DNA of 64,000 nt from NCBI GenBank assembly GCA_964469605.1, contig CAYXZA010000001.1, positions 6,899 through 70,898 of the forward strand. The letters are read 5' to 3'. This DNA is from an uncultured Candidatus Saccharibacteria bacterium (GTDB lineage Bacteria > Patescibacteriota > Minisyncoccia > Phycocordibacterales > DATDWN01). The notes under the pieces are model-generated. The model searched no databases. It was not told the origin of the DNA and saw only the letters and a list, made by a program, of their open reading frames with translations. The translations under genes were made by a program, and so were the position numbers. Shown piece by piece: positions 9,403 to 41,740 of the stretch (positions are counted from its first letter, which is position 1; every line of letters starts with the position of its first letter).

Positions 9403-9455
9403 AAAACACAAAAAGGAAAATATATACAGAGCAGTTTAAGATATATTCCGTAAAA

Positions 9456-9546: not shown

Positions 9547-9573
9547 ATAAGGCAAATACGAGTAGTTTTTTAT

Positions 9574-9725: not shown

Positions 9726-9742
9726 TTTATTTTTAAACTTAT

Positions 9743-9940: not shown

Positions 9941-9961
9941 AATTTATTTTTATTGATTTTA

Positions 9962-10411
9962 TTAAAATGGTATATCTTCTGGATTTATATCTTCTTCTGG
10001 ATATTCTATTGTATCCATTTTTGAATCAGGAGCAGAAGAATCTCCAGAAGTCTTTGATTCATTGGCAAATGAAGAGCCACCCTCTTTTCTTGGGCCAAGC
10101 TGTATTCTATCAGCAACAACCTCTGTTCTATAATTTTTCTTTCCAGAAGCATCGTCCCAGCTCCTTGTTTGCATTCTACCTTCAACTAAAACTGAACTTC
10201 CTTTTTTTAGATATTGAGAAACAATATCAGCTTGTTTTCCAAAAACTACTATATTATGATAATCAACTGATTCTTGTTTAACACCATTTTTATCTTTCCA
10301 AACTCTGTTTGTTGCCACTGAAAATGAAGAAACTTTTATACCTGACGGTAAAGACTTAGCCTCTGGATCTTTTGTTAAATTACCTATTAAAATAGCTTTA
10401 TTTAAATACAT
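9962..10411 (-). CDS. ssb: Single-stranded DNA-binding protein
   Basis: OB-fold core, a Gly/Ser-rich linker, and an acidic C-terminal tail ending DIPF. Confidence 0.9.
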   Translation of the reverse strand: MYLNKAILIGNLTKDPEAKSLPSGIKVSSFSVATNRVWKDKNGVKQESVDYHNIVVFGKQADIVSQYLKKGSSVLVEGRMQTRSWDDASGKKNYRTEVVADRIQLGPRKEGGSSFANESKTSGDSSAPDSKMDTIEYPEEDINPEDIPF

Positions 10412-10418
10412 ATTTTTA

Positions 10419-10967
10419 TTATGCTACTACTAAATTATCTATTGATTTATCTAGGGCAACTTCATCTATAACATCACTTTTAACATCATCAACAGTCTCA
10501 TCTTTAGAAACCTTGTCTTCTTTTTTAAACATCATTTTACCATTTAAAAGTGTATTTTCTTTAACTGTTTTTACAATCAAAAATCTAACAATAAAAGGAT
10601 TATTTTCCGCATACTTTTTGATCTCTGAAACATTTAGAGTATCCATCTGAAACTTTATATAACCAAAGTAACCCTTTTGACACTTTACTCTAGAAGAAGT
10701 TGTGACTTTAACCATAGGATATGCCAAATCTATAAGTATAGGATTTTCAAATGATAATACATTTCCAGAATTTGAACTTATTTGTTCTTGTAGATTTGTA
10801 ACCTCTTTTGAAACATCATCGTTTGACAGGCTTGGTAAAAGTATATATGAGATCTCGTATATACCAAAAACAGAGTCAACCTCTTCTGTTACTTTTTTGC
10901 TTTTTACGGCCTTTTTTTCTTTAGTTTTTACATCTTTTTCCATAAGAAACAGACTATCATAAAACAT
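10419..10967 (-). CDS. rpsF: 30S ribosomal protein S6 (possibly with an extended or mis-set N-terminus)
   Basis: The S6-like core YEISYILLPSL...LAYPM...GYFGYIKF is present, and the gene sits directly upstream of ssb-rpsR. The true start may be internal, near 10850. Confidence 0.65.
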   Translation of the reverse strand: MFYDSLFLMEKDVKTKEKKAVKSKKVTEEVDSVFGIYEISYILLPSLSNDDVSKEVTNLQEQISSNSGNVLSFENPILIDLAYPMVKVTTSSRVKCQKGYFGYIKFQMDTLNVSEIKKYAENNPFIVRFLIVKTVKENTLLNGKMMFKKEDKVSKDETVDDVKSDVIDEVALDKSIDNLVVA

Positions 10968-11016
10968 CTTTTATGGCAAGGAACGGGTCTAAACCAAAAT
11001 TGAATAAAATACTGCC

Positions 11017-11817
11017 CTATTTATCTATACTAAACAATCTTTTAGCATTAGAGATCAAAACCTCTTTTAGATAATCTTCTTTTATATTTTTTATTTCTGC
11101 CATTTTTCTTACAACAAAAGGAACATTTAGAGGGCTATTTCTCTTGCCTCTAAAAGGAACAGGGGCAACAAAAGGAGAATCAGTCTCGCAATGTATCATA
11201 TCATCTGGTGTATATTTTATAAGATCATTGTAGTCGCTTGTAAAAGTGATAACACCTGTAAAAGAGACAGAAAATCCAATATCCAAAAAACCTTTCAAAA
11301 TTTCCTTATTACCAGCAAAAAAATGTGCATTGCCAAAAAGCCTATCTCCAAAATCTTTTTTATAAGATCCAAGAACATTTAAAGTATCCTCGTAGGCATC
11401 CATAGATTTTTCAGATGGACGACAATGAAGCATTAGTGCTTTACTGTTTTTAACAGCTAAATCTATATGACTTTCAAATATTTGCTTTTGGATTTTTTTA
11501 GCACTATCAATTTCTGACAACCTAAAATAATCAAAACCACATTCCCCTAATGCTACAACTTTTGGCTCTAAAACTAAACTTTCAAAATCCTTATCAAAAA
11601 CATCACTTTGAAAATGAGCAGGGTGAACACCTATACAAGAAAAAATATTTTCATTTTCCTTTGCCAAAGAAATAGATTTTTCTGAAGTCTCTTTATTTGT
11701 TCCGATGGATATAGTAAAAATACCCTCTTTTTTCATAGATTCTAATATAGAAAATCTATCAGAATCAAATTCATCAAAATAAAGATGTGAATGTATATCA
11801 AAATAATTTATATTCAT
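11017..11817 (-). CDS. tatD: TatD-family metal-dependent hydrolase/DNase
   Basis: N-terminal FDIHSHLYFDEF metal-binding motif. The TIM-barrel histidine and glutamate pattern runs throughout. Confidence 0.8.
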   Translation of the reverse strand: MNINYFDIHSHLYFDEFDSDRFSILESMKKEGIFTISIGTNKETSEKSISLAKENENIFSCIGVHPAHFQSDVFDKDFESLVLEPKVVALGECGFDYFRLSEIDSAKKIQKQIFESHIDLAVKNSKALMLHCRPSEKSMDAYEDTLNVLGSYKKDFGDRLFGNAHFFAGNKEILKGFLDIGFSVSFTGVITFTSDYNDLIKYTPDDMIHCETDSPFVAPVPFRGKRNSPLNVPFVVRKMAEIKNIKEDYLKEVLISNAKRLFSIDK

Positions 11818-11821
11818 AAAA

Positions 11822-13264
11822 CTATTCTTTTCTTAAAAATAGTGGTTTTTCTAGTTTATTTTGTTTTATAGCATCTCTTATCTTCAAACTAGTTTCTGGC
11901 ATTATAGGCTCCAATAAAGTTGATACAAAATAAAGTCTTTTAACTAAAAAATCTATCATCTCTATACCCTTCTCTTTTTCTGTTTTTACAACCTTAAAAG
12001 GTTGATTTTCTTGTATATACAGATCAAGTTCAGAAATTTTCTGCCAAATATAATCAGTGGCTTTATTTATCTCAAAATTATTCAACAAGTTAAAATACTC
12101 TTCAATATTTTCAGAATCAACATCAGAAATGTAAACAGGAGTATCTAAATTTGTCTCAGCCATCTTCATTATACGAGAAACTAGATTTCCCAATCCGTTT
12201 GCCAAATAGCTATTGTAACTTTCTTTAAGCCTTTCCATTGTCATGTCAGAGTCTTCAAAACAAGATAGCTCTTTTACCACAAAAAATCTTAAAACATCAG
12301 CTCCGTATATAGAAACAACATCATAAGGATTTATAACATTACCGAGTGACTTACTCATCTTTTGACCTCCGCTTAAAATAAAACCATTTATAACAATACG
12401 ATTTGAATTTGGAAGACCTGCTGACATAAGCATTGCTTGCCACATTGCTGACTGCTGTCTTAGATTGTCTTTACCAGCATACTGAACAGGAGTGCCATTT
12501 ATCCAATATTTTTCAAAAGTAACAATATCATTTGGCCAACTTAAAGTTGAAATATAGTTTATAAGTGCATCAAACCAAACATACATAACATGATCAGGAT
12601 CATTTGGCACAGGAACACCCCAAGACATTTTTGACCTAAGTCTTGAAATACTAAAATCTTCAAGTCCTCTTTCTACAAATTTTTTTATTTCAGTAAAACG
12701 AAAATCTGGCACAACAAAATCTGGATTTTTTTCATAAAAATCTAGTAGTGGTTTTTGATATTTACTCCACCTAAAAAAATAATTTTCCTCTTCCCTTATT
12801 TCAAGTTCCCTGTTTGGATGTATAGAACATTTACCATCAACCAACTCTGAATCAGTTTTTTCAAGTTCACATCCAATACAATATTTAATCTTGTAATTTT
12901 TTTTGTATATATCTCCATTTTGAAAGCAAAGATTCCAAAAATATTGAGCTGACTTTTGATGTTCTTTGTTTGTAGTTCTTATAAAATGTAAATCACTTGA
13001 AAGATTTAACAGCTCTTTCAATCCTTTAAACCTATCAGCAAAAAAATCAACATAATCTTGAGTCTCCTTACCTGCCTTTAAAGCTTCGTCAAAAATCTTT
13101 TGACCATGCTCATCTGTTCCTGTGTTAAAATACACATCAAAACCTTGAATCTTTTTCGATCTAGCTATTATATCAGCCCTAACTATTTCAGCGGCAAAAC
13201 CAATATGAGGATCCGCATTTACATAAGGAAGAGTTGTTGTTATATAAAAAGTTTTCTTTTGCAT
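11822..13264 (-). CDS. metG: Methionyl-tRNA synthetase (short form)
   Basis: A class I HIGH-like motif (PHIGFA), a zinc knuckle (CIGCELE...CSIHPN) and KMSKSLGN are all present. Confidence 0.9.
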   Translation of the reverse strand: MQKKTFYITTTLPYVNADPHIGFAAEIVRADIIARSKKIQGFDVYFNTGTDEHGQKIFDEALKAGKETQDYVDFFADRFKGLKELLNLSSDLHFIRTTNKEHQKSAQYFWNLCFQNGDIYKKNYKIKYCIGCELEKTDSELVDGKCSIHPNRELEIREEENYFFRWSKYQKPLLDFYEKNPDFVVPDFRFTEIKKFVERGLEDFSISRLRSKMSWGVPVPNDPDHVMYVWFDALINYISTLSWPNDIVTFEKYWINGTPVQYAGKDNLRQQSAMWQAMLMSAGLPNSNRIVINGFILSGGQKMSKSLGNVINPYDVVSIYGADVLRFFVVKELSCFEDSDMTMERLKESYNSYLANGLGNLVSRIMKMAETNLDTPVYISDVDSENIEEYFNLLNNFEINKATDYIWQKISELDLYIQENQPFKVVKTEKEKGIEMIDFLVKRLYFVSTLLEPIMPETSLKIRDAIKQNKLEKPLFLRKE

Positions 13265-17058: not shown

Positions 17059-17556
17059 TTAGGTGGCCCTAGTATTACTACCAAATGCGAATCTATAATT
17101 AGAATGCCAATATTCAGTAACAGATTCATTTAATTTATCACCTATTACTAAACAAACTTCATCTTTACCATCTTCATCTTTTCTTCTAACAAGAGAAATA
17201 TCATAACCATCATTAGTATATATTCTAAAATCTTCAAAAGATAAAGCTGTTGTATTCCTAAAATACAAGACAGAGGCAATGTAGATTAAAACTTCATATA
17301 AATTAAACTTCCTAGATGTTTTTTGCTCATTATGCGAATTTTTAATGGAAATATACGGAAAATTTAAATGAGCATTAGGTGAACTAGAAATTTTTTCCAT
17401 ATCCATAATTAAGTTAAATGTAAAACCTTTTCCTACAAGAAATCTAATTAAAGGATAAATAAAAAATCCATATACTAAGATTTTATCCTCTTGAAAATCA
17501 CAATCTATTTTAATATCAACACCTAATTCTTTGTAAAAATTTCTCCAAGTGAGCAT
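17059..17556 (-). CDS. Hypothetical protein
   Basis: ORF only; no recognisable motif. Confidence 0.3.
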   Translation of the reverse strand: MLTWRNFYKELGVDIKIDCDFQEDKILVYGFFIYPLIRFLVGKGFTFNLIMDMEKISSSPNAHLNFPYISIKNSHNEQKTSRKFNLYEVLIYIASVLYFRNTTALSFEDFRIYTNDGYDISLVRRKDEDGKDEVCLVIGDKLNESVTEYWHSNYRFAFGSNTRAT

Positions 17557-21456: not shown

Positions 21457-24400
21457 TTACAAGACTTCTATAGAGAAATGAGTTTTTTTATCTTTTAAAC
21501 TAACTTCAAAAGTTAAATCACCGTCTTCAAAAACAATTTCCTTTGCACCGACTGTCTTTTTTATAATCTCAGAAAAAGATTTGATGATTTTCTGTATATC
21601 AGAAGAAGCTGAAACTTTAAGTAAGATAATATTTTTTGAAATTAGATTCATTTTCTTTCTGCCATCTTGAACCGCTCTTATAAAATCACGGCAAATACCC
21701 TCCTCTATCAGTTCATCGGTTAAGTTTGTATCAAGAACAATGTCAGCAAGTGAAGAATCCACCTCTATTTCTTTAACATTAACTTCATCTTTAATAATTT
21801 CTAGTATTTCAGTATCCAAATCTGTATTTACATATAGTTTATACAGAGGTTGTCTGACTTTGATAGAAACCTTTTCTCTTTGCATTAAAACATTTGAAAC
21901 TATCTCTCTTGCTTTTTGCATAGAAGAAAGCAGATTATCATTTACCTGCCTATTTACTTTTGGCCAATTATCCAAATGAACACTTATGGAATCACCACCA
22001 TCTCTTAATCTCAGATACAGACTCTCTGCTAAAAATGGCATAAACGGAGCCAAGACTTTTGATAATTCTTTCAAAACATATTTTGTATAAAACAAGGCAG
22101 ATTTTCTATCATCTTCATTTTCTGATTTAAACCTCTCTCTTGATCTCCTGATATACCAAACAGAAAAATCATCTATAAATGAAATTATAGGTTTTGTAGC
22201 TTTATCTATTTCATACAAATCCATAGACAAAGTCACCTCTTTTATAAGAACAGCTAATTTATCTAGTATCCAACTATCCAAAACTGATTCTTTTGGTAGA
22301 TTAGAAATATCCTCTTTATACATATCATAAAAAGAATAAATATTTTCAAGTTTTAAAACTATTTTTTTATAAACCTCATCTACCAATTTTTCTGAGAAAT
22401 TGAAATCTTCAGCTTTAACAAGTGGAGATGATAGGAGTAAATACCTTATACTATCGGCACCGTATTTATTTATAGTATCCATAAGATCTGGATAGTTTTT
22501 AAGTTTTTTAGACATCTTTCTACCATCTTCAGCAAGCACAAGACCATTTACCAAAACATTTTCATAAGGACTTTTACCAAAAAGAGCTGTTCCTAAAACT
22601 AAAAGTGTATAGAACCAACCCCTTGTCTGATCAAGTCCTTCTGCTATAAATTCTGCCGGAAACATTAAACTATCAACTTTATCAAACTCATTTTTATTCT
22701 TAAAAGGATAATTTTGTTGTGCAAAAAACATAGAACCGGATTCATACCAACAATCAAAAACATCAGGAATTCTTTTTAGTTTCTGACCTTCATCATCAAA
22801 AACTTCTACATCATCTATAAATGGCCTATGCAGATCAACTTCAAAATCTTCATTTACAGGAAGCTGACGAAAATCAACCTCTCTAACTTCTGCATTATCC
22901 CAATCACTTTTATAATCCAAATACATCTCTCTTTTAGATAAACCCTTTGAAACCAGGTCTAAAATAATAAGTGGTGCTCCGTGAGAAACTATTAGTATAT
23001 TTTTACCTTGATATTTTTTATCTATATCATATATAAACTCGGACACTCTTTTTCTAACATCATCCCAATTTTCATCTCCATCTACTTTTTTTTCAAACTT
23101 ATCTTTTTTTTGTGGAAAATTTTCCAGATATGTTGACCATAATTTACCATTAAAGGATTTTGCTTGAAGCTCAATTAACCTTTCATCAGTTTCTATTTGA
23201 CCAGAAAATCCAATTTCTTTAGATAACAACTGGGCAGTTTGCATTGTTCTCTTAAAAGGAGATGAAAAGATTACATCAATTTTTTCATTTATATTTTTAG
23301 CTGAGGATATAACATCTTGAATACCTGAATCTATTAGAGAATCTTCACCATCATAAATACACGAAATTACAGATTTTTCATTTGACTTTGATCTTCCATG
23401 CCTTACTAGAAAATAATTATTTCTCTTTGGTATATGTTTTTTTATATCTGAAATAGATTCAAAAACATATTCCTTTCCTTTTTCATCAGTCCAAACAGGA
23501 AGAGGTGCTCCCCAAAATCTAGATCTAGATATTGCCCAATCTGGAGCACCCTCTATCCAATTACCAAATCTATTTTCCCCTATTTGTTTTGGAATCCATT
23601 TAACTTTTCTGTTATTTTCAAGCATTTTCTCTTTCAAACTCTCTATCTTTACAAACCAAGAACTTGTAGCATAGTTTAAAAGTGGACTATCACATCTCCA
23701 ACAATGAGGATATGAGTGGACAATTTTTTCCTTTGCAAAAAGCAGTCCGCTATGTGCCAAATATTTTATAATCTCAATATCTGTTTTTTGATGACCATCT
23801 TTGTCATCTGATTTTGGTTTTACAAAAAAACCTTTAAAATCCAAAATCTCATCTTTAAATGTTCCGTCTGTTTTTACATGTTGAATAAAAGGCAGACTAT
23901 ATTTTTTAAGTAGAGAGTAGTCATCATTTCCAAAAGCTGGTGCAATATGAACAATACCTGTTCCATCTTCTGATGTCACAAAATCACCTTCATAAATTTT
24001 CCAACCATTTTCTCTGTTTTCTATTTTTTCATTTTCTGAATAATAATTGAAAAGTGGTTTATATCTTTTTCCTAAAACTTCATCAACTAAAACAGTTCTC
24101 AAAATTTTAAAATTTTCTTTAAATACAGCTTCAACTCTTGATTTTGCGATTATGTATTTATTTTCATCAACTCCACTAGAAACTTCAACATATTCAATAT
24201 CTTTATTTATGGCCAAAGCAACATTTCCAGGAAGTGTCCAAGGTGTTGTTGTCCAAACCAAAAGATAAGTATTTTCCAAACCTTCTAATTTAAACTTCAC
24301 ATATACAGAAATATCGGTTATATCTTTGTAACCCAGATTGACCTCAAAATTTGAAAGTGTTGTCTCGCATCTAGGACAAAGATGCATTGATTTGAATCCT

Positions 24401-24936
24401 TTATAGATAAGCCCTTTATCATAAAGATTTTTAAATGACCACCAGATACTTTCAGTATATGTCTTGTCCATTGTCCTATAATCATTTTCCATATCAACCC
24501 ATCTCCCAGTTCTAGGTATAACCTCTTTCCAAATATCAGCATATTCCAAAACAGAATTCTTTGCCTCTTTATTAAAATTACCAACTCCATAATCTAAAAT
24601 ATCTTTCTTTGTTTTAAGATTTAATTTCTTCTCTATCAAATTTTCGATCGGAAGACCGTGACAGTCCCAACCCCACCTTCTCAAAACCTTTTTGCCCTGC
24701 ATTGTTTTGTATCTAGGAATAGCATCTTTTATAGAACTAGCCAAAAGGTGTCCGTAATGTGGCTCACCTGTGGCAAATGGTGGACCATCATAAAAAACAA
24801 AACTACCACCGTCTTTTTCTAGACTTTTTTCAAAAATATTATTTTCTTTCCAAAAAGCAAAAACTGCCTCCTCCCTTTTGGCAACTTCACTTTTTTCTTT
24901 TTTATCTTTATTTGACGACTGATCCATAAAATCCAT
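21457..24936 (-). CDS. ileS: Isoleucyl-tRNA synthetase with an inserted histidine-phosphatase-like domain
   Basis: HYGH (PPFATGEPHYGHLL), a CP1 editing region and KMSKKLKN are present. Between the ...WAISRSRFWGAPLP and ...DCWYESGS segments there is an extra ~180 aa carrying LVRHGRSKSNE and IVSHGAPL motifs. Confidence 0.9.
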   Translation of the reverse strand: MDFMDQSSNKDKKEKSEVAKREEAVFAFWKENNIFEKSLEKDGGSFVFYDGPPFATGEPHYGHLLASSIKDAIPRYKTMQGKKVLRRWGWDCHGLPIENLIEKKLNLKTKKDILDYGVGNFNKEAKNSVLEYADIWKEVIPRTGRWVDMENDYRTMDKTYTESIWWSFKNLYDKGLIYKGFKSMHLCPRCETTLSNFEVNLGYKDITDISVYVKFKLEGLENTYLLVWTTTPWTLPGNVALAINKDIEYVEVSSGVDENKYIIAKSRVEAVFKENFKILRTVLVDEVLGKRYKPLFNYYSENEKIENRENGWKIYEGDFVTSEDGTGIVHIAPAFGNDDYSLLKKYSLPFIQHVKTDGTFKDEILDFKGFFVKPKSDDKDGHQKTDIEIIKYLAHSGLLFAKEKIVHSYPHCWRCDSPLLNYATSSWFVKIESLKEKMLENNRKVKWIPKQIGENRFGNWIEGAPDWAISRSRFWGAPLPVWTDEKGKEYVFESISDIKKHIPKRNNYFLVRHGRSKSNEKSVISCIYDGEDSLIDSGIQDVISSAKNINEKIDVIFSSPFKRTMQTAQLLSKEIGFSGQIETDERLIELQAKSFNGKLWSTYLENFPQKKDKFEKKVDGDENWDDVRKRVSEFIYDIDKKYQGKNILIVSHGAPLIILDLVSKGLSKREMYLDYKSDWDNAEVREVDFRQLPVNEDFEVDLHRPFIDDVEVFDDEGQKLKRIPDVFDCWYESGSMFFAQQNYPFKNKNEFDKVDSLMFPAEFIAEGLDQTRGWFYTLLVLGTALFGKSPYENVLVNGLVLAEDGRKMSKKLKNYPDLMDTINKYGADSIRYLLLSSPLVKAEDFNFSEKLVDEVYKKIVLKLENIYSFYDMYKEDISNLPKESVLDSWILDKLAVLIKEVTLSMDLYEIDKATKPIISFIDDFSVWYIRRSRERFKSENEDDRKSALFYTKYVLKELSKVLAPFMPFLAESLYLRLRDGGDSISVHLDNWPKVNRQVNDNLLSSMQKAREIVSNVLMQREKVSIKVRQPLYKLYVNTDLDTEILEIIKDEVNVKEIEVDSSLADIVLDTNLTDELIEEGICRDFIRAVQDGRKKMNLISKNIILLKVSASSDIQKIIKSFSEIIKKTVGAKEIVFEDGDLTFEVSLKDKKTHFSIEVL
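22880..23430 (-). other. Histidine-phosphatase (PGAM/RHG-fold)-like insertion domain within ileS (approximate bounds)
   Basis: Contains an RHG motif (FLVRHGRSKSN) and a second catalytic histidine motif (VSHGAP). These sit between conserved IleS catalytic-core blocks. Confidence 0.5.
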
Positions 24937-24968: not shown

Positions 24969-26165
24969 ATGTGCTATATTGAATTTAATAAAAAATTTAT
25001 GAAAAACATATCAAAAGAAGAAAAACTAAGACTTAGGACTTGGGTTGAAATAGACAGATCAGCCATCAAGCACAATGTAAATATTTATAAAAAAATTATT
25101 GGTAAAAATGTAAAACTAATTGCTGTCGTAAAATCAAATGCTTATGGACACGGACTTGTATCATTTTCAAGAGAATTAGAAAAAAACGGAATAAAATCTT
25201 TTGCAACTGACTGTATGGAGGAAGCTACCACACTAAGAGAAGCTGGCATAAAATCTGAAATACTAAATTTGGGTTTTTGTCCTTATACAGATTACCAAAA
25301 TGCTATAAAAAACAATATAACCATTACAATATCAAGTTTAGATTCTTTAAAAAGAGTTTCCAAAGTTAAAGAAAAAATAAACATACATATAAAGGTGGAT
25401 ACTGGTATGGGAAGACAAGGTTTCAAAAATGAAGAACTTGATATTGTATTAAATACACTAAAAAAACATAAAAATATAAATGTATTAGGTGTTTACAGTC
25501 ACCTAGCATCAGCAGATGATTTGGAAAATGTTGCATTTACAGAAAAACAGATTGGGACACTAAACTCTTGGCACAGTAGATTTTTAGAAAATGGTTTTAA
25601 ACCAATAAAACATATCACTGCTTCTGCCGGCACAATGCTTTTTCCTCAATTTCACTTTGATGCAGTTAGGATAGGTATTGGACTTTATGGACTTCACCCA
25701 TCTGACACAACCAAAAAACTTTTTTCAAAAAAATACCCACTTAAACCTGTGCTATGTTGGAAAAGTATTTTAACTGAAATAAAAAAATTTAAAAAAGGAG
25801 ATAAAATTGGATATGATTTAACAGAGACACTGCAAAGAGATTCTAGACTAGCAATAATACCAGTTGGATACTACAACGGTTATCCAAGACTACTTTCCCT
25901 CAAAGGATTGTTTGAACTGAAAGGTAAGAAAATAAAAATCATAGGTAAAGTTTCTATGAATATGATTATTGTTGATATAACCGATGTAAAAAAAGCTAAA
26001 TTGTTTGACGAAGTTATTATTGCTGGTGGCAAAAGCCATATTGCAGATATATATCAAATAGCACAAGATACTGAAAGTATAGTATATGAAGTATCAACAA
26101 AAATAAATCCAATTATAAAAAGATATTACAGTATCAACCCTGACATAAAACGAGTAGTGGTTTGA
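24969..26165 (+). CDS. alr: Alanine racemase
   Basis: PLP-lysine motif AVVKSNAYGHG, and the overall fold III PLP-enzyme layout. Confidence 0.9.
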   Translation: MCYIEFNKKFMKNISKEEKLRLRTWVEIDRSAIKHNVNIYKKIIGKNVKLIAVVKSNAYGHGLVSFSRELEKNGIKSFATDCMEEATTLREAGIKSEILNLGFCPYTDYQNAIKNNITITISSLDSLKRVSKVKEKINIHIKVDTGMGRQGFKNEELDIVLNTLKKHKNINVLGVYSHLASADDLENVAFTEKQIGTLNSWHSRFLENGFKPIKHITASAGTMLFPQFHFDAVRIGIGLYGLHPSDTTKKLFSKKYPLKPVLCWKSILTEIKKFKKGDKIGYDLTETLQRDSRLAIIPVGYYNGYPRLLSLKGLFELKGKKIKIIGKVSMNMIIVDITDVKKAKLFDEVIIAGGKSHIADIYQIAQDTESIVYEVSTKINPIIKRYYSINPDIKRVVV

Positions 26166-26267
26166 AAATCTAATACAATAATGAAGCCTCGCTCCCGATG
26201 AATCGGAAACGAGGCCGAGGACCAAGGTCAAAGTGTCTAAAAAATCACAGTGACCTAGCCCAAAGAA

Positions 26268-26909
26268 CTAACTTTCGAGATAAGCCGAAAAATGCCAGCT
26301 ATGCCACCGATCGCTGAGCCGACGCACGCGCCAGTGCCACTGACCTCCAACCGAGCACAAGTACAGAACGCAACGCCCGCCATCCGGATTACGGAGAATG
26401 GTTCCGAAGAAATCGAGATATTTGATACCTCGCTCCCTTCGGAGATTCTCCAAAACGGAGGCGCTGCCTCTGGACTTGTAGTCCACAAGGAGAGCCTCTC
26501 CGACCAGGGCGTCGAGGACGATCTTGCCTGACTTCTTAAGCTGGGCAAACTTTTCCTCTCCGGTGATACTCGTCTCGCCGGGATGGAGAAAGGTCTCGAA
26601 ATTCGCCCAATCCACCTCTTTCAAAGCAAGACTGTCGAGGTCTTGCTCCATATCCCCATAGAGACCATCACCATTGGCTGGACCCCTCCAAATGGTCCAG
26701 CCGGGACCAATGAAGGTGGTTGGGTTGAACTTCTTTGTGCGGTCTATGGCGAGCACTGGGCTCACCACCCAACAAGCCTCCTTCCGGAGGAATTTTTTGA
26801 ACTCTCTGAGCCACCGCTCGCCGTCCTCCCCGGCGAGATTGACGATTAAATGATTCAGCAGTCCGGAGTTAAACTCACGGAGTGCTTTGAAGAGCATGGT
26901 GTTGTCCAT
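26268..26909 (-). CDS. GC-rich island paralog 1 (unknown function; Trp-rich C-terminal domain)
   Basis: Its GC-rich codon usage contrasts with the host. It shares about 140 aa of C-terminal homology with the 27208-28074 product (FNPTTFIGPGWTIW...GEEKF..LKKSGKI..DA...FFGTILRNPDGGRCVLYL...W.WRV). Confidence 0.55.
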   Translation of the reverse strand: MDNTMLFKALREFNSGLLNHLIVNLAGEDGERWLREFKKFLRKEACWVVSPVLAIDRTKKFNPTTFIGPGWTIWRGPANGDGLYGDMEQDLDSLALKEVDWANFETFLHPGETSITGEEKFAQLKKSGKIVLDALVGEALLVDYKSRGSASVLENLRRERGIKYLDFFGTILRNPDGGRCVLYLCSVGGQWHWRVRRLSDRWHSWHFSAYLES

Positions 26910-26955
26910 GGTCTTTTTCCTTTCTGCCAGAGGACCATCTTTAATCTTGTTGGAT

Positions 26956-27002
26956 GGTCATAGCCAAAAAATGCCTACTTTAAGCATTTTTTGGCTATGA
27001 CC
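26956..27002 (-). promoter_or_regulatory. Conserved 5'UTR hairpin (19 bp stem) between promoter and start codon of paralog 1
   Basis: ggtcatagccaaaaaatgc-ttaaagta-gcattttttggctatgacc is a perfect inverted repeat. A nearly identical copy is at 29036-29082. Confidence 0.5.
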
Positions 27003-27064
27003 AAGTCTAAAATTAAAATTTGTCCTACTTGGGGGGTTTGGGGGTTGCCCGAATTTCTCATCCA

Positions 27065-27093
27065 ATTATATCATATTTAGATATAAAAGTCAA
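27065..27093 (-). promoter_or_regulatory. Near-consensus sigma70 promoter driving paralog 1
   Basis: Read on the minus strand: TTGACT, a 17 nt spacer, TATAAT. Confidence 0.55.
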
Positions 27094-27121
27094 TAAATAA
27101 ATTTGTAGGATTAAGAAAAGA

Positions 27122-27151
27122 CCCTGCATCTCTGTACAAGCAGATGCAGGG
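27122..27151 (-). terminator. Hairpin terminator after paralog 2
   Basis: The 10 bp stem ccctgcatct/agatgcaggg is followed, on the minus strand, by a tcttttctt T-rich tract. Confidence 0.5.
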
Positions 27152-27207
27152 CCCAAAGGGCTAAGGTCAAAGGGTTCAAGAAGGTCCCAGTGGCTTAGTC
27201 CAAAGAA

Positions 27208-28074
27208 CTAAATTGCGAGAACGGCGGATGGCTGTCGAATGTCCCAGTTGCCCATTAACCAGGACACGTTCCAGCGCCACCGACCCCTGCTCCAAAACAA
27301 GCACAGAACGTAACGGCCACCGACCGAGTCCCGAAGGACTGTGCCGTCAAAGAAGATGTAACGGGTGTTCCAGTTGACCCTCTCCTTCCACGACTCGGGA
27401 ATGAGGTGCTGGTTCTCCCAGAGCGTGAGGAAGATGTCGGCGTCCAAGCGAATGTAGTCCGATTCTTTGAGACGCCTGAGCTTCTCCTCGCCATTCACGT
27501 ACGTCTCGCCGTCCTTCAGCATCGTCACGTGCTGAACCTTCGTCAGGTCCAGTTCGGTGAGTGCGATGGATCGAGTGTCTGTCTCGTCCACCCAGATGTT
27601 CCAACCTTGGCCGATTAATAATGAATTGGGATTGAAGCGACCATGGTTGATTGGGATGATCTTCGACTCGCCGACGATGATCTTTCCACCGTTCTTGAGG
27701 AACGCCGTGAACTGTCTGCCAGCTTCCTTCGGGTTACGGACGATGAAGTCCTGAAGCCCCGAGTTAGCGAAGTCAATCGTTGCCCAATCAGTATTCACAG
27801 CCAGAGTGGCGATAACCTGATGGGATTGGTCAATTTGGCCGATTAATGAATTGGGATTGAAGCGACCATGGTTGATTGGGATGATCTTCGACTCGCCGAC
27901 GATGATCTTTCCACCGTTCTTGAGGAACGCCGTGAACTGTCTGCCAGCTTCCTTCGGGTTACGGACGATGAAGTCCTGAAGCCCCGAGTTAGCGAAGTCA
28001 ATCGTTGCCCAATCAGTATTCACAGCCAGAGTGGCGATAACCTGATGGGATTGGTCAATAGTGATTTGTCCCAT
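27208..28074 (-). CDS. GC-rich island paralog 2 (unknown function) containing an internal 75-aa tandem duplication
   Basis: Residues ~1-76 and ~77-152 are near-identical (IDQSHQVIATLAVNTDW...GRFNPNSL). The C-terminal domain is homologous to paralog 1 (FFDGTVLRDSVGGRYVLCLFWSRGRWRWNV). The start codon is preceded by a strong SD (caaggagatagacaATG). Confidence 0.55.
   Translation of the reverse strand: MGQITIDQSHQVIATLAVNTDWATIDFANSGLQDFIVRNPKEAGRQFTAFLKNGGKIIVGESKIIPINHGRFNPNSLIGQIDQSHQVIATLAVNTDWATIDFANSGLQDFIVRNPKEAGRQFTAFLKNGGKIIVGESKIIPINHGRFNPNSLLIGQGWNIWVDETDTRSIALTELDLTKVQHVTMLKDGETYVNGEEKLRRLKESDYIRLDADIFLTLWENQHLIPESWKERVNWNTRYIFFDGTVLRDSVGGRYVLCLFWSRGRWRWNVSWLMGNWDIRQPSAVLAI
27608..28060. 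repeat. Tandem direct duplication of about 225 bp (two copies, one 3 nt indel) inside paralog 2
   Basis: Plus-strand ORFs 27643-27846 and 27868-28119 translate identically. The DNA at 27608-27835 nearly equals 27836-28060. Confidence 0.8.
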
Positions 28075-28221
28075 TGTCTATCTCCTTGTGTGCAAGAGGG
28101 CGACTGTATGTCGCCGTAGCTGGGAAAGCCCTATATAAATTACTTTTTTGTAAGACTCTTTCAGCTATGGCGATTTTTTTGAAGATCAGATATGTTTAAG
28201 ACTTTGCAAATTTCTTATCGA

Positions 28222-28250
28222 ATTATATCATATTTAGATTAAAAAGTCAA
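28222..28250 (-). promoter_or_regulatory. Near-consensus sigma70 promoter driving paralog 2
   Basis: Read on the minus strand: TTGACT, a 17 nt spacer, TATAAT. Confidence 0.55.
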
Positions 28251-28278
28251 TAAATAAATTTGTAGGATTAAGAAAAGA

Positions 28279-28308
28279 CCCTGCATCTCTGTACAAGCAG
28301 ATGCAGGG
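28279..28308 (-). terminator. Hairpin terminator after paralog 3
   Basis: The same ccctgcatct/agatgcaggg hairpin as at 27122, followed by a T-rich tract. Confidence 0.5.
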
Positions 28309-28364
28309 CCCAAAGGGCTAAGATCAAAGGGTCCAAGAAGGTCCCAGTGACCAGAGCCAAAGTG

Positions 28365-28952
28365 CTACTTGCGACGAACGAACACGAAGCGACTGTAACC
28401 GTCCCAGAGGGTGTCCCACTTACCGTTGCCATTCAACCAACGACCATCCTCGCCGTGTACAACGTGGAACACGTTAGGATAGCCGTCCGAGTCCGAAATC
28501 GGTTTCATCCCGATGAGTAACCACTCTCCCTTCGGCTGGTCCTTGTACTGCAAACGCAGTTGAGGACCAACTTCAGAAGGACAGAGTTCCAGACCGAGTG
28601 AAATCGCTCGCTCGTAGATGTCGCCACGTGTGGCACCATCATTGAAGCCGAGCTCGGCAACGGAGACATTGACGAGGGGGAGCTCCATCTCGGTTTCGCT
28701 CGCCGTGAAGGCGGGCTTGCCGAGAATGTCGTTACCCCAATTCCCGATTTTGAAGCCCCCGTCCTTGAGTGCCTTTCGGAAATCATCGGCGATCTTCAGT
28801 CCCGTGCCAAGCTTCACCGTCTTCCAAATGGTGAACTGTGGAACCGATAGGGTCAGCTCACCCGAGAGGAAGCGGCGAACGCCGTCCATCCCACCGAGCT
28901 TGTTGACTATTGCTTCTATCTGACCAAGAGTTAATTCCCCGTATTTCATCAC
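28365..28952 (-). CDS. GC-rich island paralog 3 (unknown function)
   Basis: GC-rich. Its C-terminal ~40 aa (DGYPNVFHVVHGEDGRWLNGNGKWDTLWDGYSRF) resemble the paralog 1/2 C-terminal motif more weakly. It carries the same promoter, UTR and terminator cassette. Confidence 0.5.
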   Translation of the reverse strand: MMKYGELTLGQIEAIVNKLGGMDGVRRFLSGELTLSVPQFTIWKTVKLGTGLKIADDFRKALKDGGFKIGNWGNDILGKPAFTASETEMELPLVNVSVAELGFNDGATRGDIYERAISLGLELCPSEVGPQLRLQYKDQPKGEWLLIGMKPISDSDGYPNVFHVVHGEDGRWLNGNGKWDTLWDGYSRFVFVRRK

Positions 28953-29035
28953 TCTCTCTCCTTATCGGCTGATTGCCGATGGACTTCCCACTGCCCGTGG
29001 GTTTAGGGTTAGAGCTAGAGGACAACCACATTGGT

Positions 29036-29082
29036 AGTCATAGCCAAAAAATGCCTACTTTAAGCATTTTTTGGCTATGACC
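29036..29082 (-). promoter_or_regulatory. Conserved 5'UTR hairpin of paralog 3
   Basis: agtcatagccaaaaaatgc...gcattttttggctatgacc, a copy of the hairpin at 26956. Confidence 0.45.
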
Positions 29083-29144
29083 AAGTCTAAAATTAAAATT
29101 TGTCCTACTTGGGGGGTTTGGGGGCTTCTGAAATTTCTTATCCA

Positions 29145-29173
29145 ATTAGATCATATTTAGATTAAAAAGTCAA
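29145..29173 (-). promoter_or_regulatory. Sigma70-like promoter driving paralog 3
   Basis: Read on the minus strand: TTGACT, a 17 nt spacer, TCTAAT. Confidence 0.45.
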
Positions 29174-29192
29174 TAAATAAATTCAGAAGATT

Positions 29193-30872
29193 TTACATCT
29201 CCTCTGGAGTTTTTATACCAAGAAGCCAAAGTCCTGACTGCATAGTTTCTTTGAAAACTTCTATTAAGAAGATTTTATATGGAGAATTTTTATCATCTTT
29301 GTCTACTATTTTTTCTTTTGCATAAAAACTATTAAACTCACCTGAAAGCTCTATCAGATATGTACTTATGTATTGTGGAGCATATTTTAGTCCCGCTCTT
29401 TCTATAACAGAATAAAATCTCTCTAAAAGTTTTTCTAGTTTTGTTACTTTCCAATCTTCTGGAATCAAATCACCTGAAACCAAAGACAGATCATTTGCTT
29501 TTTTTAATATAGAATTTGCTCTGACAGCTGAATATTGTAAATAAGGACCAGAATCCCCTTCAAAAGAAAGTGATTTATTGAAATCAAAAATAATATCAGA
29601 ACCGATTGATTGTTTTAATATAGAATATTTTATAGCACCAATAGCAACCATCTGAGCAATTTCTTTTTTCTTTTCATCTGAAAACTCTCTGTCTTTCATT
29701 TTTTCTAATGTTTTTTCTTTAACCTGATTTATCATTGACTCTGCTGTTATAACATTACCAGTTCTACTAGACATCTTTCCTTCTGGGAGTTTTAACATCC
29801 CATGAGATATATGTTTTAATTTACCTTTTCTTGATGGCATAACTTCACCTATGGCAACCTCTACCACATCAAAAAAACTATCTTGCTCATTTGCTGTTAC
29901 GGTAATAGATAAATCATAATCAAAATTTTCTTTTTTTATGAAAGCAAGACCAACTTCTTTTGCTTCATAAGTTGGCAATCCGTCGCTGTTTAAAAAAACT
30001 CTGGTATGAGTTTTAGGTATAAAATTTTCACCTTTAAATATCACTGCTCCACTATCACCTTTTTCAAAAACTTTACCAATATTTTCAGATACAACTTTTT
30101 TACCAATCTCCCCTGACTGACTTTCTAAAAAATGAAAATTAAAATGACTATCTAGTTTTTTATAAATTTCTTCAAAAAACTCAAAACTTTTTTTTATACC
30201 TTCTTTGTATATTAAATTTATATAACTATCAGATTCTTCATATATTTTCTTATTAATTTCATTTATTTCACTTTTTTCCACAAGGTTTTCATAAAATATA
30301 TTTCCTACTGCATAAGCTTTTTTAAAATCATCTGTTTTTTTATTGAAAATAGCCCACACAGCTTTTGCTATATGAATACCTTTATCACCGTGATAAGTAG
30401 CAACTTGCACATCCGCTCCAAGTGTCTTAATAAGTCTTGATATTGACTCACCAATTGCATTGTTCATTAAATGTCCAATGTGAAATTCTTTAAACGGATT
30501 TGGTTGAGTATGTTCTATAAAAATCTTCTTTCCTTTCAAATTGCTCGGTAAACCCTCACCTTTTTTAGTCCTCTTTAAACAATCCCTTATATATTCTTTT
30601 GTTAAAAAGAAATTCAAAAAACCATTTGGTGCAACTTCAACTTTTTCAATTTCTTTTATTTTTTGATTATTTAATTTTTCTACAAATTCAGCGGATAAAG
30701 TCTTTAAATCCTTACCCTCTTTTTTTGCCATCATCAAAGCTACGGTGCTAGAGTAGTCACCAAAAGAAAGGTTTTGATTTGGTTCAATAGAAAAATCAGT
30801 ATCTAAACCCAAAACCTCGGCTATCCATTTTTTTATTATACTTTCTGTCATTTTATTTTCCAGATGAACCAA
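29193..30872 (-). CDS. argS: Arginyl-tRNA synthetase
   Basis: A class I HIGH motif (FHIGHLMNNAIGE) and a C-terminal DALR anticodon-binding-like region. Length 559 aa. Confidence 0.9.
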   Translation of the reverse strand: MVHLENKMTESIIKKWIAEVLGLDTDFSIEPNQNLSFGDYSSTVALMMAKKEGKDLKTLSAEFVEKLNNQKIKEIEKVEVAPNGFLNFFLTKEYIRDCLKRTKKGEGLPSNLKGKKIFIEHTQPNPFKEFHIGHLMNNAIGESISRLIKTLGADVQVATYHGDKGIHIAKAVWAIFNKKTDDFKKAYAVGNIFYENLVEKSEINEINKKIYEESDSYINLIYKEGIKKSFEFFEEIYKKLDSHFNFHFLESQSGEIGKKVVSENIGKVFEKGDSGAVIFKGENFIPKTHTRVFLNSDGLPTYEAKEVGLAFIKKENFDYDLSITVTANEQDSFFDVVEVAIGEVMPSRKGKLKHISHGMLKLPEGKMSSRTGNVITAESMINQVKEKTLEKMKDREFSDEKKKEIAQMVAIGAIKYSILKQSIGSDIIFDFNKSLSFEGDSGPYLQYSAVRANSILKKANDLSLVSGDLIPEDWKVTKLEKLLERFYSVIERAGLKYAPQYISTYLIELSGEFNSFYAKEKIVDKDDKNSPYKIFLIEVFKETMQSGLWLLGIKTPEEM

Positions 30873-41318: not shown

Positions 41319-41399
41319 AAAATAATATTAACATTTCCACAGATTTTAAACAAAAAAGTTGACTTTTATTGCAAATGTTATTATATTTTTTACGGTATG

Positions 41400-41605
41400 C
41401 TAATTTCGAGAGAAAAGTTCCGGGAACTTCAAATGAAGTTCCCGAAACAAAAGTTCCTTGATGCTCCCCCACGATGGTGGGGGAGCGAAATCATGGAGGG
41501 GCGGGAAATCGCCCCTCAAAAGGAGGTGGAAGAAGAAAAATGACCCGAAGTGGGTCGGGGGTGTCAGACCGCAAGCGACCCCCGACCCACTTGCGGGTTT
41601 TTTAT
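41400..41605. other. GC-rich multi-hairpin element (copy 2 of 2); candidate structured ncRNA ending in a terminator-like hairpin plus T-run
   Basis: Four hairpins: gttccgggaactt/aagttcccgaaac; gctcccccac-gatg-gtgggggagc; gaggggcg/cgcccctc; cgaagtgggtcggggg...cccccgacccacttgcg followed by tttttt. The linker aaaagttccttgat is shared with the element at 8581-8700. Confidence 0.4.
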
Positions 41606-41740
41606 TTTCAAACGAAGTGAGTGAAGTAAGAGAGTAGTCTTTCTTACTTCCGAGCGAGTGCAGGAAAAGATCTCTTTTCAAACGAAGTGAGCGAAGCGAA
41701 CATTCTTTGGGTCCAAGGCTCTGTCTTGGGGTTTAATACC
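41605..41740 (+). repeat. Intergenic repeat family 1, copy B
   Basis: Its hairpin is gaagtaagagag...ctttcttacttc. Relative to copy A (gaaataagaaag/ctttcttatttc) it carries compensatory A-T to G-C changes. The 3' module is gtgagcgaagcgaacattctttgggtccaaggctctgtcttggggtttaatacc. Confidence 0.5.

Follow-up and report, generated by a model that had tools for sequence, protein, structure and literature searches.

The window analysed here is a continuous stretch of 64 kb (64,000 nucleotides), in which the interval between alr and argS holds three minus-strand ORFs, P1, P2 and P3. Pfam agrees with alr and argS as the flanking genes, confirming the position between them that a preliminary description of this DNA had reported. 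The three genes are as follows:

26268..26909, minus strand: P1 gene, 213 aa, putative DGR variable protein with the N-terminal module MDNTMLFKALREF... followed by a C-type-lectin-like domain
27208..28074, minus strand: P2 gene, 288 aa, putative P1/P2-type DGR variable protein with a duplicated N-terminal module
28365..28952, minus strand: P3 gene, 195 aa, predicted N-terminal helical module and C-type-lectin-like domain

The likelier start of P3 is the ATG at 28949 (~194 aa), which is preceded by the SD AAGGAG at 28963-28958. The GC of the three ORFs is 53-55% against ~30% in the host genes, with a GC3 ranging from 0.65 to 0.70 compared with 0.14-0.19 in six neighbouring genes, so the coding GC is indeed far above that of the host, as had been claimed. 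The excess also held in sliding 200-nt windows, where GC was 0.50-0.585 within the ORFs, 0.32-0.40 in the spacers and ~0.30 in the flanks, and no second stretch of comparable GC over >500 nt was present in the 64-kb window.

P1 and P2 share 34% identity by BLASTP (E=1e-20) over ~200 aa, a stretch that takes in almost the whole of P1; their paralogy therefore stands, while the shared part is longer than the ~140-aa C-terminal domain first proposed, and the distinct N-terminal modules seen on the two paralogs bear out the earlier remark that these regions differ. No relation of P3 to P1 or P2 was detectable by BLASTP (E=0.027 and 2.0), though a profile-profile comparison gave a weak, co-linear alignment (E=0.016). 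P2 also contains an internal repeat:

27619..28059, minus strand: perfect, in-frame tandem duplication in P2, repeating the ~75-aa N-terminal module

The two copies, 27619-27834 and 27844-28059, are 216 nt each, 100% identical and spaced 225 nt apart. Contig L001, from another assembly, runs through copy 1 and the junction and stops 107 nt into copy 2, which supports the junction, though the duplication could still be an assembly artefact.

The DNA between the genes is AT-rich, as had been noted, yet it is not merely host-like, since it consists of near-identical repeated units (91-94% identity), each of which combines a TTGACT-17-TG-TATAAT promoter with a structured leader and with a terminator. 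The elements assigned to each gene are:

29145..29173, minus strand: putative P3 promoter, TTGACT, 17 nt, TG-n-TCTAAT, beginning ~20 nt past the argS stop codon
29029..29087, minus strand: P3 leader hairpin H1, core GTCATAGCCAAAA...TTTTGGCTATGAC, covariance model 67.6 bits on the sense strand
28964..29001, minus strand: P3 leader hairpins H2+H3, immediately 5′ of the SD
28279..28364, minus strand: P3 3′ unit, with T/C-rich CTTTG/CCCTTTG repeats, a terminator hairpin and a T-run
28279-28308, minus strand: P3 terminator hairpin, CCCTGCATCT...AGATGCAGGG
28222..28250, minus strand: putative P2 promoter, TTGACT-17-TATAAT with extended -10 TG, 11/12 matches
28105..28177, minus strand: P2 leader hairpin H1, diverged and weaker, covariance model 34.8 bits, E=4e-6, sense strand
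27122..27207, minus strand: P2 3′ unit, 91% identical to the P3 3′ unit, terminator hairpin at 27122-27151
27065..27093, minus strand: putative P1 promoter, TTGACT-17-TATAAT with extended -10 TG, 11/12 matches
26949..27007, minus strand: P1 leader hairpin H1, covariance model 66.2 bits, in a region 92% identical to the P3 copy
26185..26267, minus strand: P1 3′ unit, partly conserved, with a different terminator hairpin (26185-26216) facing the convergent alr

A 31-nt promoter block occurs in three copies in the 64-kb window and nowhere else in it, and these blocks upstream of P1, P2 and P3 would be expected from their sequence to act as promoters; a simple promoter scan did not list that of P3 because its -10 hexamer is TCTAAT. 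Across 21 loci, 96% of the H1 cells were paired and nine pairs showed compensatory changes, a level reached by 0/500 shuffles. H2 and H3, which in P3 read CCCAC-GGGCA-GTGGG (29001-28987) and ATCGGC-AATCA-GCCGAT (28980-28964), had 92% of cells paired and compensatory changes in 9/11 pairs over 21 loci. The conserved three-hairpin 5′ leader had no match in Rfam 15. CTTTG-rich 3′ regions with a hairpin were also observed past the stop codon in the related loci L010, L012, L008 and L009, and the 3′ unit may serve DGR target recognition or termination. The island would then consist of three cassettes in tandem, each transcribed on its own: a sigma-70-type promoter comes first, followed by a structured leader of ~150-200 nt, an SD and an ORF, and the cassette is closed by a T/C-rich 3′ unit that includes an intrinsic terminator.

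In a diversity-generating retroelement (DGR), RT-Avd (RT, the reverse transcriptase) makes cDNA from the RNA of the template repeat (TR) and misincorporates nucleotides opposite its adenines. This cDNA then takes the place of the variable region (VR) of the target gene, so that AAY-encoded ligand-contact residues are randomised on a fixed scaffold. Paul et al. 2017 is reportedly among the works that treat DGR variable proteins of CPR/Patescibacteria. Homology places P1, P2 and P3 as members of Patescibacteria-specific families of DGR target (variable) proteins. For both types, many relatives lie directly upstream of TR, avd and reverse transcriptase, in a stereotyped layout with the TR ~350 nt downstream of the stop, then an opposite-strand avd and then the DGR reverse transcriptase. 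The P3 family comprises >1168 proteins, with 268 loci in GTDB genomes, and all of the relatives in GTDB species genomes (268/268) come from Patescibacteria-type MAGs, a few of them mislabelled. Among 79 P3-family loci examined, 39 were DGR-linked and 21 were orphans with ≥2.5 kb of flank on both sides, a local DGR thus being absent in about a third (21/60) of the members with adequate flanks.

Within the P3-type relatives, 613 of 636 VR-TR mismatches fell at TR adenines (36 pairs; C-terminal ~45 codons), and the P3-type loci L012/L013 gave 16/16. Homologs of the P1 N-terminal module adjoin bAvd and RVT_1, with mismatches at adenines only (25/25 in L008 and 17/17 in L009). A full-length P1/P2-type homolog, P0012 in L010, matches both the N-terminal module of P2 and the C-terminal domain, and has a TR 490 nt downstream, with 24/30 mismatches at TR adenines. 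The P1/P2-type loci from metagenomes number 38, of which 12 have an adenine-specific TR, in most cases on a contig that also carries avd and/or RT; mismatches at adenines were, for example, 24/24 (L096), 16/16 (L098), 17/17 (L103) and 16/16 (L125). Independent TR/VR pairs in relatives total more than 45, which makes it unlikely that these pairs are artefacts. In the family alignments, hypervariable positions alternate with a conserved scaffold over the last ~45 residues, and one P3-type cluster shows natural variants confined to the VR.

Because of the adenine-specific TR/VR mismatches in relatives, the shared Trp-rich C-terminal segment of the three proteins is taken to be the VR, at the following positions:

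28368..28502, minus strand: P3 VR equivalent, last ~45 codons, ...SDSDGYPNVFHVVHGEDGRWLNGNGKWDTLWDGYSRFVFVRRK, aligning to the VRs of relatives, boundaries set by homology
27211..27345, minus strand: P2 VR equivalent, ...VLRDSVGGRYVLCLFWSRGRWRWNVSWLMGNWDIRQPSAVLAI, homologous to the L010 VR and other P1/P2-type pairs, boundaries likewise approximate
26271..26405, minus strand: P1 VR equivalent, ...ILRNPDGGRCVLYLCSVGGQWHWRVRRLSDRWHSWHFSAYLES, aligning with the L010 VR and other P1/P2-type targets, boundaries likewise approximate

The coding-strand A content of these segments is 18% in P3, 14% in P2 and 14% in P1, compared with 24%, 26% and 24%, respectively, in the remaining gene. Compared with the family scaffold, the P3 VR lacks one codon and has W in place of the usual P, a deviation that would fit decay and equally a cognate variant TR. 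The VRs of P1 and P2 differ at the third position in 15/35 aligned codons (read off the sequence by eye), for which reason they would need different TRs. With TR, RT and Avd all missing from the ~82 kb around P1, P2 and P3, DGR targeting of these copies is inferred from homology only. The rapid diversification suggested previously is seen in the way that the VR was built; no sequence variants that would point to present-day diversification of these copies are on record.

Pfam, NCBIfam and PHROG models gave no match to P1, P2 or P3, in line with the view that the family was unrecognised, although CPR DGR targets without recognisable domains are a class that has already been described (PMC8144416, PMC5758913). 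The AlphaFold model of P3 (pLDDT 84) matches folds of the C-type-lectin and FGE types, the DGR proteins TvpA and Mtd among them, and that of P1 (pLDDT 87) matches the same set more weakly, so the structure search proposed at the outset did return a fold. The likeness to C-type-lectin folds is clear in the P3 model and weak in that of P1, with structural scores so low that only a fold class, and not a subfamily, would be claimable. The product of each ORF would be a variable protein of the DGR-target kind, small and apparently cytoplasmic, with a short helical N-terminal module, exchangeable within the family, followed by a divergent C-type-lectin-fold domain whose last ~45 residues would form the VR; a ligand-binding role of P1, P2 and P3 is plausible.

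The GC richness extends across the family, with an excess of +0.13 in 73/78 loci, in relatives throughout Patescibacteria. It is limited to the target gene, the GC in 32 cassettes being 0.565 for the target, 0.434 for the flank, 0.379 for RT and 0.387 for avd; the neighbouring avd and RT resemble the host in GC or are richer in AT. The dependence on host GC is weak for the target (slope 0.44) and close for RT (0.92). At four-fold sites the targets have A.12, C.44, G.19 and T.24, against A.40, C.06, G.06 and T.47 in the host genes of the window, and both this profile and the excess are alike in orphan and DGR-linked copies. Synonymous identity between family members is 0.45 against 0.33 expected from composition, that is, near saturation. 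The GC-rich, adenine-poor, pyrimidine-ending third-position composition is a maintained property of the target-gene families. This whole-gene bias falls outside what the standard DGR mechanism explains, and neither a whole-gene GC/NNY bias nor the three-hairpin leader was found mentioned in the DGR literature searched.

Horizontal acquisition was the explanation first given for the GC; as a recent transfer from a GC-rich donor, it would make the coding sequence unameliorated foreign DNA. The GC3 gap to the host, the interruption of housekeeping genes and the variable site of orphan copies among related genomes (between tRNA synthetase and peptidase M16 genes in L014/L036) would all agree with it. 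It is nonetheless very improbable: a recent transfer from such a donor is unsupported because the excess is family-wide whatever the host GC, target-gene-specific and persistent despite near-saturated synonymous sites; moreover, the families are found only in Patescibacteria-type MAGs, the co-inherited avd and RT lack GC richness, and P1, P2 and P3 have AT-rich, host-like promoters, leaders and terminators in common. Neither an integrase nor a tRNA attachment site turned up at the island, and it is not flanked by direct repeats. It is hardly conceivable that the island is an assembly chimera, or that the ORFs are not genes (e.g., a GC-rich non-coding RNA). Contigs of other assemblies do break in or beside the island, at the P2 duplication and the repeated leader, and the argS-P3 junction is covered by the window alone. 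However, such breaks sit at repeats, as short-read assembly would give, one promoter block lies both past the argS stop codon and ahead of each gene, and independent assemblies carry the same sequence over ileS-alr-P1-P2 (L001), alr-P1 (L002, L003) and P3-P2 (L134), so that contiguity is corroborated everywhere but at argS-P3. The ORFs, 195-288 codons long, are real genes, as had been assumed: they have protein-level homologs in the hundreds, and their folds are predicted with confidence. The island is very probably a cassette array of DGR-type variable-protein genes without a local TR-avd-RT, and the odd base composition of P1-P3 belongs to the gene family and is not a sign of recent foreign origin.

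A search of the 64-kb window together with a further 10 kb and 8.3 kb of flanking DNA (~82 kb of the 138-kb contig), reaching ~36 kb left of the island and ~43 kb right of it, revealed neither RT nor Avd nor TR, and P1, P2 and P3 are on this account orphan or remote targets. Most likely they are orphans, with VRs that are frozen and genes kept as ordinary binding proteins, a status inferred from the negative evidence within those ~82 kb. All three are singletons in their 90%-identity clusters, where no sequence variants of them are on record, and the P1 and P3 protein sequences recur identically in other assemblies and sequencing runs, which may all derive from one population. Somewhat unlikely, though deserving serious consideration, is that all three are active remote targets, whose VRs keep being rewritten by one or more DGRs elsewhere in this small genome that supply three cognate TRs in trans. 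Remote, non-adjacent DGR targets are documented in Treponema and others (PMC5758913), the lack of a local DGR in a third of the adequately flanked P3 family would agree, and none of the three ORFs is disrupted, their 3′ units and leaders being conserved as well. Orphan copies family-wide also match linked ones in GC excess and in the same extreme avoidance of adenine in the VR (1-6% A at four-fold sites), which could reflect continued servicing in trans. Against this, three TRs would be needed, P3 having yet another VR type than P1 and P2; the 2017 survey found mostly one adjacent target in CPR DGRs and targets >100 kb away only in another lineage (PMC5758913); the retroelement parts are missing from the surrounding ~82 kb; and no VR variants of P1-P3 are on record, while an orphan homolog cluster (P0018) shows dispersed drift and not VR-confined variation. 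The frozen-orphan state is therefore preferred, by a modest margin.

Compared with known systems, the locus resembles horizontally acquired genomic islands in its sharp compositional break between housekeeping genes, but differs in that the bias is gene-by-gene with host-like spacers and family-wide in many hosts. Like the Treponema denticola DGR with its seven targets, it has target-type genes far from any RT; known remote targets, however, have a single TR in common and VR scaffolds that are nearly identical, whereas the three VRs here are incompatible with any single TR, and no TR is known. The closest parallel is with the CPR/Patescibacteria DGR targets, namely the 'DGR clade 2' of Roux et al. 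2021 and the 'CPR set' of Wu et al. 2018 with its unclassified VR classes UVR1-6 (PMC8144416, PMC5758913). As in those, the proteins are small, lack a recognisable Pfam or transmembrane domain, have a C-terminal VR and fuse modular N-terminal parts to a lectin-like C-terminal domain, and their relatives adjoin TR, avd and RT and are restricted to Patescibacteria (PMC8144416, PMC5758913), a likeness drawn from the published descriptions of the class. Three tandem copies with two VR types in ~82 kb without TR, avd or RT set the locus apart from them. Mtd (Bordetella phage BPP-1, 1YU0), TvpA (Treponema denticola, 2Y3C), archaeal AvpA and Thermus TaqVP likewise carry the VR at the C-terminal end, with a Trp/Gly/Arg scaffold interleaved with AAY-encoded variable residues; sequence identity to them is 6-12%, the domain here is far smaller (~150 aa), and the genes stand outside any trimerisation, phage-tail or lipoprotein context.

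The island between alr and argS is made up of three cassettes for variable proteins of Patescibacteria, of the type diversified by diversity-generating retroelements (DGRs) and with a predicted C-type-lectin fold, and it has no local retroelement. Its three genes (P1, P2 and P3), the genes on either side and the elements recognized at each gene are as follows:

24969–26165, plus strand: alr, flank gene, Pfam-confirmed
26218–26267, minus strand: 3′ UTR of P1, CTTTG motif repeated before a hairpin
26268–26909, minus strand: P1, ORF of 213 aa
26949–27007, minus strand: match to the covariance model of leader hairpin H1, sense strand
27152–27207, minus strand: 3′ UTR of P2, CTTTG motif repeated before a hairpin
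27208–28074, minus strand: P2, ORF of 288 aa
28105–28177, minus strand: weaker H1 covariance-model match, sense strand
28309–28364, minus strand: 3′ UTR of P3, CTTTG motif repeated before a hairpin
28365–28952, minus strand: P3, ORF of 195 aa (194 aa from the likelier start, the ATG at 28949)
28964–29087, minus strand: three-hairpin leader with compensatory base changes, also found upstream of target genes in L015–L093 (loci of relatives)
29029–29087, minus strand: H1 covariance-model match, sense strand
29193–30872, minus strand: argS, flank gene, Pfam-confirmed

The preliminary description had proposed a GC-rich island of three genes, and this is borne out by the GC windows, the GC content at third codon positions (GC3), the Pfam-confirmed flank genes and the paralogy of P1 and P2. 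In 200-nt windows, the GC content was 0.50–0.585 inside the ORFs, 0.32–0.40 between them and ~0.30 around them, with no stretch of comparable GC in the rest of the 64 kb, whilst GC3 was 0.65–0.70 in the island genes against 0.14–0.19 in six neighbouring genes. The BLASTP comparison revealed that P1 and P2 are paralogs with 34% identity (E=1e-20) spanning almost all of P1; it shows no relationship of P3 to either, for which a weak co-linear match (E=0.016) was obtained by profile-profile comparison. P2 carries a perfect 216-nt in-frame tandem duplication (27619–27834 and 27844–28059, spacing 225 nt) that doubles its N-terminal module, and the duplication junction is also present in a contig of another assembly, which stops inside the second copy; either the duplication arose very recently or the assembly is at fault here.

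The intergenic DNA had been described as keeping the AT-rich character of the host, and AT-rich it is, but it is not generic, since the spacers are near-identical repeated units (91–94%). Each island gene has its own promoter (TTGACT-17-TG-TATAAT, with TCTAAT as the −10 of P3), followed by a leader of 150–200 nt and then an SD sequence, and a 31-nt promoter block occurs in three copies in the window, all at island genes. Each stop codon is followed by a T/C-rich unit, conserved in relatives, in which CTTTG/CCCTTTG repeats are joined by a GC-rich hairpin plus T-run; the hairpin lies 60–90 nt from the variable region (VR) and has a terminator-like look. The motifs CTTTG and CCCTTTG(A/G) precede this hairpin at intervals of ~8–12 nt in the 3′ UTRs of the target genes, those of two related contigs (L010 10673–10770 and L012 6595–6690) included, and may be bound by a protein or serve DGR target recognition.

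Scans of all three proteins against Pfam, PHROGs, NCBIfam and PADLOC gave nothing meaningful, in keeping with the earlier remark that the family was not recognizable. With the curated profiles silent, it was the genomic context of the homologs that decided the identity of the genes. Only 25 homologs of P1 turned up among 5.8 billion proteins, and both P1 and P2 are 38–60% identical to family members, including P0012, a homolog that has a template repeat (TR). Three of the 25, P0022–P0024, share 67–83% identity with P1 over the N-terminal ~60 residues and have a different C-terminus; two of them, on contigs L009 and L008, lie directly upstream of bAvd and RVT_1 genes. In both loci, the 3′ end of the gene recurs ~500 nt downstream as a ~115-nt repeat; the two copies disagree at 17 and 25 positions, respectively, and the downstream copy has adenine at every one, which is the TR/VR signature of a DGR. 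P0012 (contig L010) is a full-length P1/P2-type homolog, which also bears the N-terminal module of P2; the translation of its TR is rich in AAC codons (FLRSPNGNRNTLYLYRNDDGKWNWNYNWLNNNWNADNL), and 24 of the 30 TR/VR mismatches fall at TR adenines. A metagenome scan added 38 P1/P2-type loci, 12 of them with adenine-specific TRs (examples of mismatches at adenines being 24/24, 17/17, 16/16 and 16/16), and on contigs of sufficient length the TR is followed by avd and the reverse transcriptase (RT) gene in a stereotyped order.

The P3 family is far larger, with >1168 proteins, more than 100 of which are 58–73% identical to P3; its named members come from Parcubacteria, Minisyncoccia, Uhrbacteria and similar groups, and the GTDB species genomes contain 268 loci of the family, in Patescibacteria-type MAGs. 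Among the 79 loci examined, 39 are linked to a TR, avd or RT, 21 are orphans, having at least 2.5 kb of flank on each side and no DGR part in it, and 19 could be placed in neither class, leaving 21 orphans among the 60 loci with adequate flanks. The linked loci are laid out as target (plus strand), ~350 nt, TR, avd (minus strand) and RT (plus strand). The mismatches of 36 TR–VR pairs lie almost entirely at TR adenines (613 of 636), those of the P3 homolog P0143 are adenine-only (16/16), and one P3-type 90% cluster contains natural variants, all inside the VR. The alignment of the family shows a largely invariant stretch of ~150 N-terminal residues, while in the last ~45 residues an invariant W/G/R/F scaffold alternates with free positions (alignments A1, A3 and A5). 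The adenine-specific TR/VR mismatches of the relatives support the preliminary reading of these genes as diversifying, with the C-terminal segment as the device for it. The folds predicted by AlphaFold, with confident pLDDT values of 84 (P3) and 87 (P1), resemble a C-type-lectin fold bearing the VR, clearly for P3 and weakly for P1. The N-terminal modules of P1 and P2 are fused to P3-type bodies in five other loci (L079, L060, L085, L073 and L052), and a gene with the P1/P2-type VR domain (L028 3363–3674) lies 4.3 kb away from an orphan P3 homolog, which indicates module shuffling among the target families and co-occurrence of both target types.

A conserved 5′ leader was observed upstream of all three island genes and of P3-family genes in many lineages. 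It contains a long hairpin, H1, with a nearly invariant core (GTCATAGCCAAAAG...TTTTCTGGCTATGAC) and covariation in both the outer and the inner stem; in the 21 loci compared, 96% of the cells are paired and nine pairs show compensatory changes, a level reached by none of 500 shuffles. Two short hairpins, H2 (CYCAC-GGRNA-GTGRG) and H3, stand directly 5′ of the SD, with 92% of the cells paired and compensatory changes in nine of 11 pairs across the 21 loci. The covariance model of H1 found sense-strand matches upstream of target-family genes, at 38 of the 79 P3-family loci and five P1/P2-type loci, and two extra matches likewise lie 5′ of diverged P3-like paralogs. No Rfam 15 family matched the leader: a scan of the window at gathering thresholds was negative, as was one of the island at E<=1, apart from spurious sub-threshold matches of the miRNA hairpin type. 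The simplest guess is that the leader is a dedicated post-transcriptional control element.

The GC content of the island had also been taken as a sign of horizontal acquisition, a reading contradicted by a bias that is family-wide and specific to target genes, with no integrase and no tRNA within 16 kb; the repeats flanking the island are cassette units only. The GC anomaly is no evidence that a GC-rich donor recently passed these genes on. In 78 P3-family loci, the GC content of the target is on average 0.134 above that of its flanks (by >0.05 in 73 of them), with no difference between linked and orphan loci. The 32 complete cassettes have GC contents of 0.565 for the target, 0.434 for the flanks, 0.379 for the RT and 0.387 for avd, and the slope of GC against host GC is 0.92 for the RT versus 0.44 for the target. 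The target genes, both in the window (26268–28952) and in contigs L008–L131, have a GC3 of ~0.67 and adenine-poor synonymous sites over their full length, with avd and RT being host-like or AT-richer.

The base composition of four-fold sites was as follows:

Neighbouring host genes: A.40, C.06, G.06, T.47
Island genes outside the VR: A.12–.14, C.34–.51, G.18–.29, T.17–.25
Target family outside the VR: A.12, C.44, G.19, T.24
Target family inside the VR: A.01–.06
RT genes: even, ~.25 for each base

Synonymous-site identity between family members is 0.45 vs 0.33 expected from composition alone, close to saturation, which marks the sequences as ancient and divergent, and still the bias persists. 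It is asymmetric between the strands: sense-strand codons are poor in adenine and tend to end in a pyrimidine. Its VR part fits the logic of DGRs, because the scaffold must avoid adenine and NNY codons are not mutable to stop through their first two positions, but for its extension over the whole ORF the standard DGR mechanism gives no account. There is no upstream-decaying gradient of adenine depletion; a step at the VR boundary was observed, with the rest of the gene uniformly A-poor. A limited literature search met no description of the whole-ORF bias. A speculative and rather improbable explanation is that a DGR-linked process working on the whole target transcript or gene, beyond the 130-nt VR, has left its mark in the composition. 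In such a process, the entire mRNA might now and then be reverse-transcribed and re-integrated with adenine mutagenesis, or else selection might shield the scaffold from such mutagenic events, and the three-hairpin leader could be an RNA handle for it or serve dedicated regulation. If this were true, orphan targets such as P1–P3 would remain controlled by a retroelement even with no TR nearby.

A sizeable share of the targets has no local DGR machinery (21 of the 60 whose flanks suffice, as well as the three island genes), which raises the question of whether they are frozen binders or are serviced in trans. Sensitive blastn found no second copy of any VR in the 64-kb window or in 18 kb of added flank, and the island compared with the window gave P1–P2 similarity only. 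A degenerate pattern allowing the VR base or A at each position of the P3 VR had no match in the GTDB genomes, the VR itself included, the source genome not being among them. A single TR for both P1 and P2 was rejected because the third position differs in 15 of 35 aligned VR codons, and one island gene as the TR of another was likewise rejected because the VRs are adenine-poor. With three RTs of related cassettes as tblastn queries, no match was better than E=0.25 in the window and none reached E<=0.1 in the flanks, no window ORF >150 aa has a YxDD motif, and three Avds (accessory proteins) of related cassettes gave no match better than E=0.6. Extending the flanks via the window-edge proteins gave a further 10 kb (left) and 8.3 kb (right), again without DGR parts, so that any DGR would have to be more than ~36 kb away from the island on its left side or ~43 kb on its right.

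We lean towards P1–P3 being frozen orphans, whereas their still being rewritten in trans by DGRs elsewhere in the genome is possible but on the doubtful side. Rewriting in trans would agree with the intact state of all ORFs, leaders and 3′ units and with the composition of the family's orphans, which match the linked copies down to the 1–6% A at VR four-fold sites, but it would require three TRs for the three VRs, P3 having another VR type. Each of the three proteins is, moreover, a singleton in its own 90% cluster, the protein sequences of P1 and P3 are identical in other assemblies and runs, the VR of P3 lacks one codon of the family scaffold and carries W in place of P, and in a cluster of orphan homologs (P0018) the variation is dispersed, as in ordinary drift, all of which argues against current activity.

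Several other loci were recorded in the window and its flanks. The added right flank (L133 18211–19109) has rpsT and ruvA adjacent, whilst the L008 genome contains a complete DGR (target, avd and RT) between the same two genes (9345–12836), a presence/absence polymorphism of a DGR cassette at a conserved location. An ORF of 165 aa (17059–17556) stands where the syntenic genome L014 has its orphan P3 homolog; as a decayed target it is excluded, being AT-rich and without similarity to targets. The isoleucyl-tRNA synthetase gene (21457–24936, minus strand) contains an inserted histidine-phosphatase domain (PF00300, His_Phos_1) with the RHG motif LVRHGRSKSN, a fusion also present in a related Parcubacteria MAG (L014 1–2117). 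A hairpin-rich non-coding stretch of ~350 nt (41390–41740, plus strand), with GC up to 0.59, follows a promoter-like TTGACT...TATAT site and repeats the motif TTCAAACGAAGTGAG(T/C)GAAG; it has no credible Rfam match and may be an uncharacterised small RNA. A non-coding inverted repeat of ~220 nt (53909–54126 and 55839–56054), 89% identical, with GC ~0.5 and no Rfam match, brackets genes for an AAA_33-type kinase and an HD-domain protein beside tRNA-Val and tRNA-Arg, and the segment may be mobile or invertible, or the repeats may be paired ncRNA genes. Beyond the left window edge, a contig ends in ~4.5 kb of raised GC (L132 12800–17574, GC 0.39–0.58) in which hardly any genes were called, possibly an rRNA operon.

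The role ascribed to retroelement-type variable proteins is the recognition of a host, a phage or a ligand. What appeared to be an unclassifiable, GC-rich 'alien' island becomes a recognizable cluster of such proteins, with a predicted lectin fold, in an ultra-small bacterium of the candidate phyla radiation (CPR). A sharp GC discontinuity in AT-rich Patescibacteria can accordingly mark DGR targets and not horizontal transfer, which is useful for annotation and for transfer screens. The parts worth pursuing are the tandem orphan arrangement and two testable leads: the maintained codon regime specific to target genes (GC3 ~0.67, with A at 1–12% of four-fold sites) and the covariation-backed three-hairpin leader RNA specific to these genes. 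The kind itself is already known, P1–P3 being new members of the CPR DGR target families. The DGR targets of CPR bacteria have been described as lacking recognizable domains and as probably carrying new variants of the C-type lectin (PMC8144416), and many VRs of CPR bacteria belong to no established class (PMC5758913); the targets analyzed here, profile-less and with a predicted lectin fold, agree with this published view.
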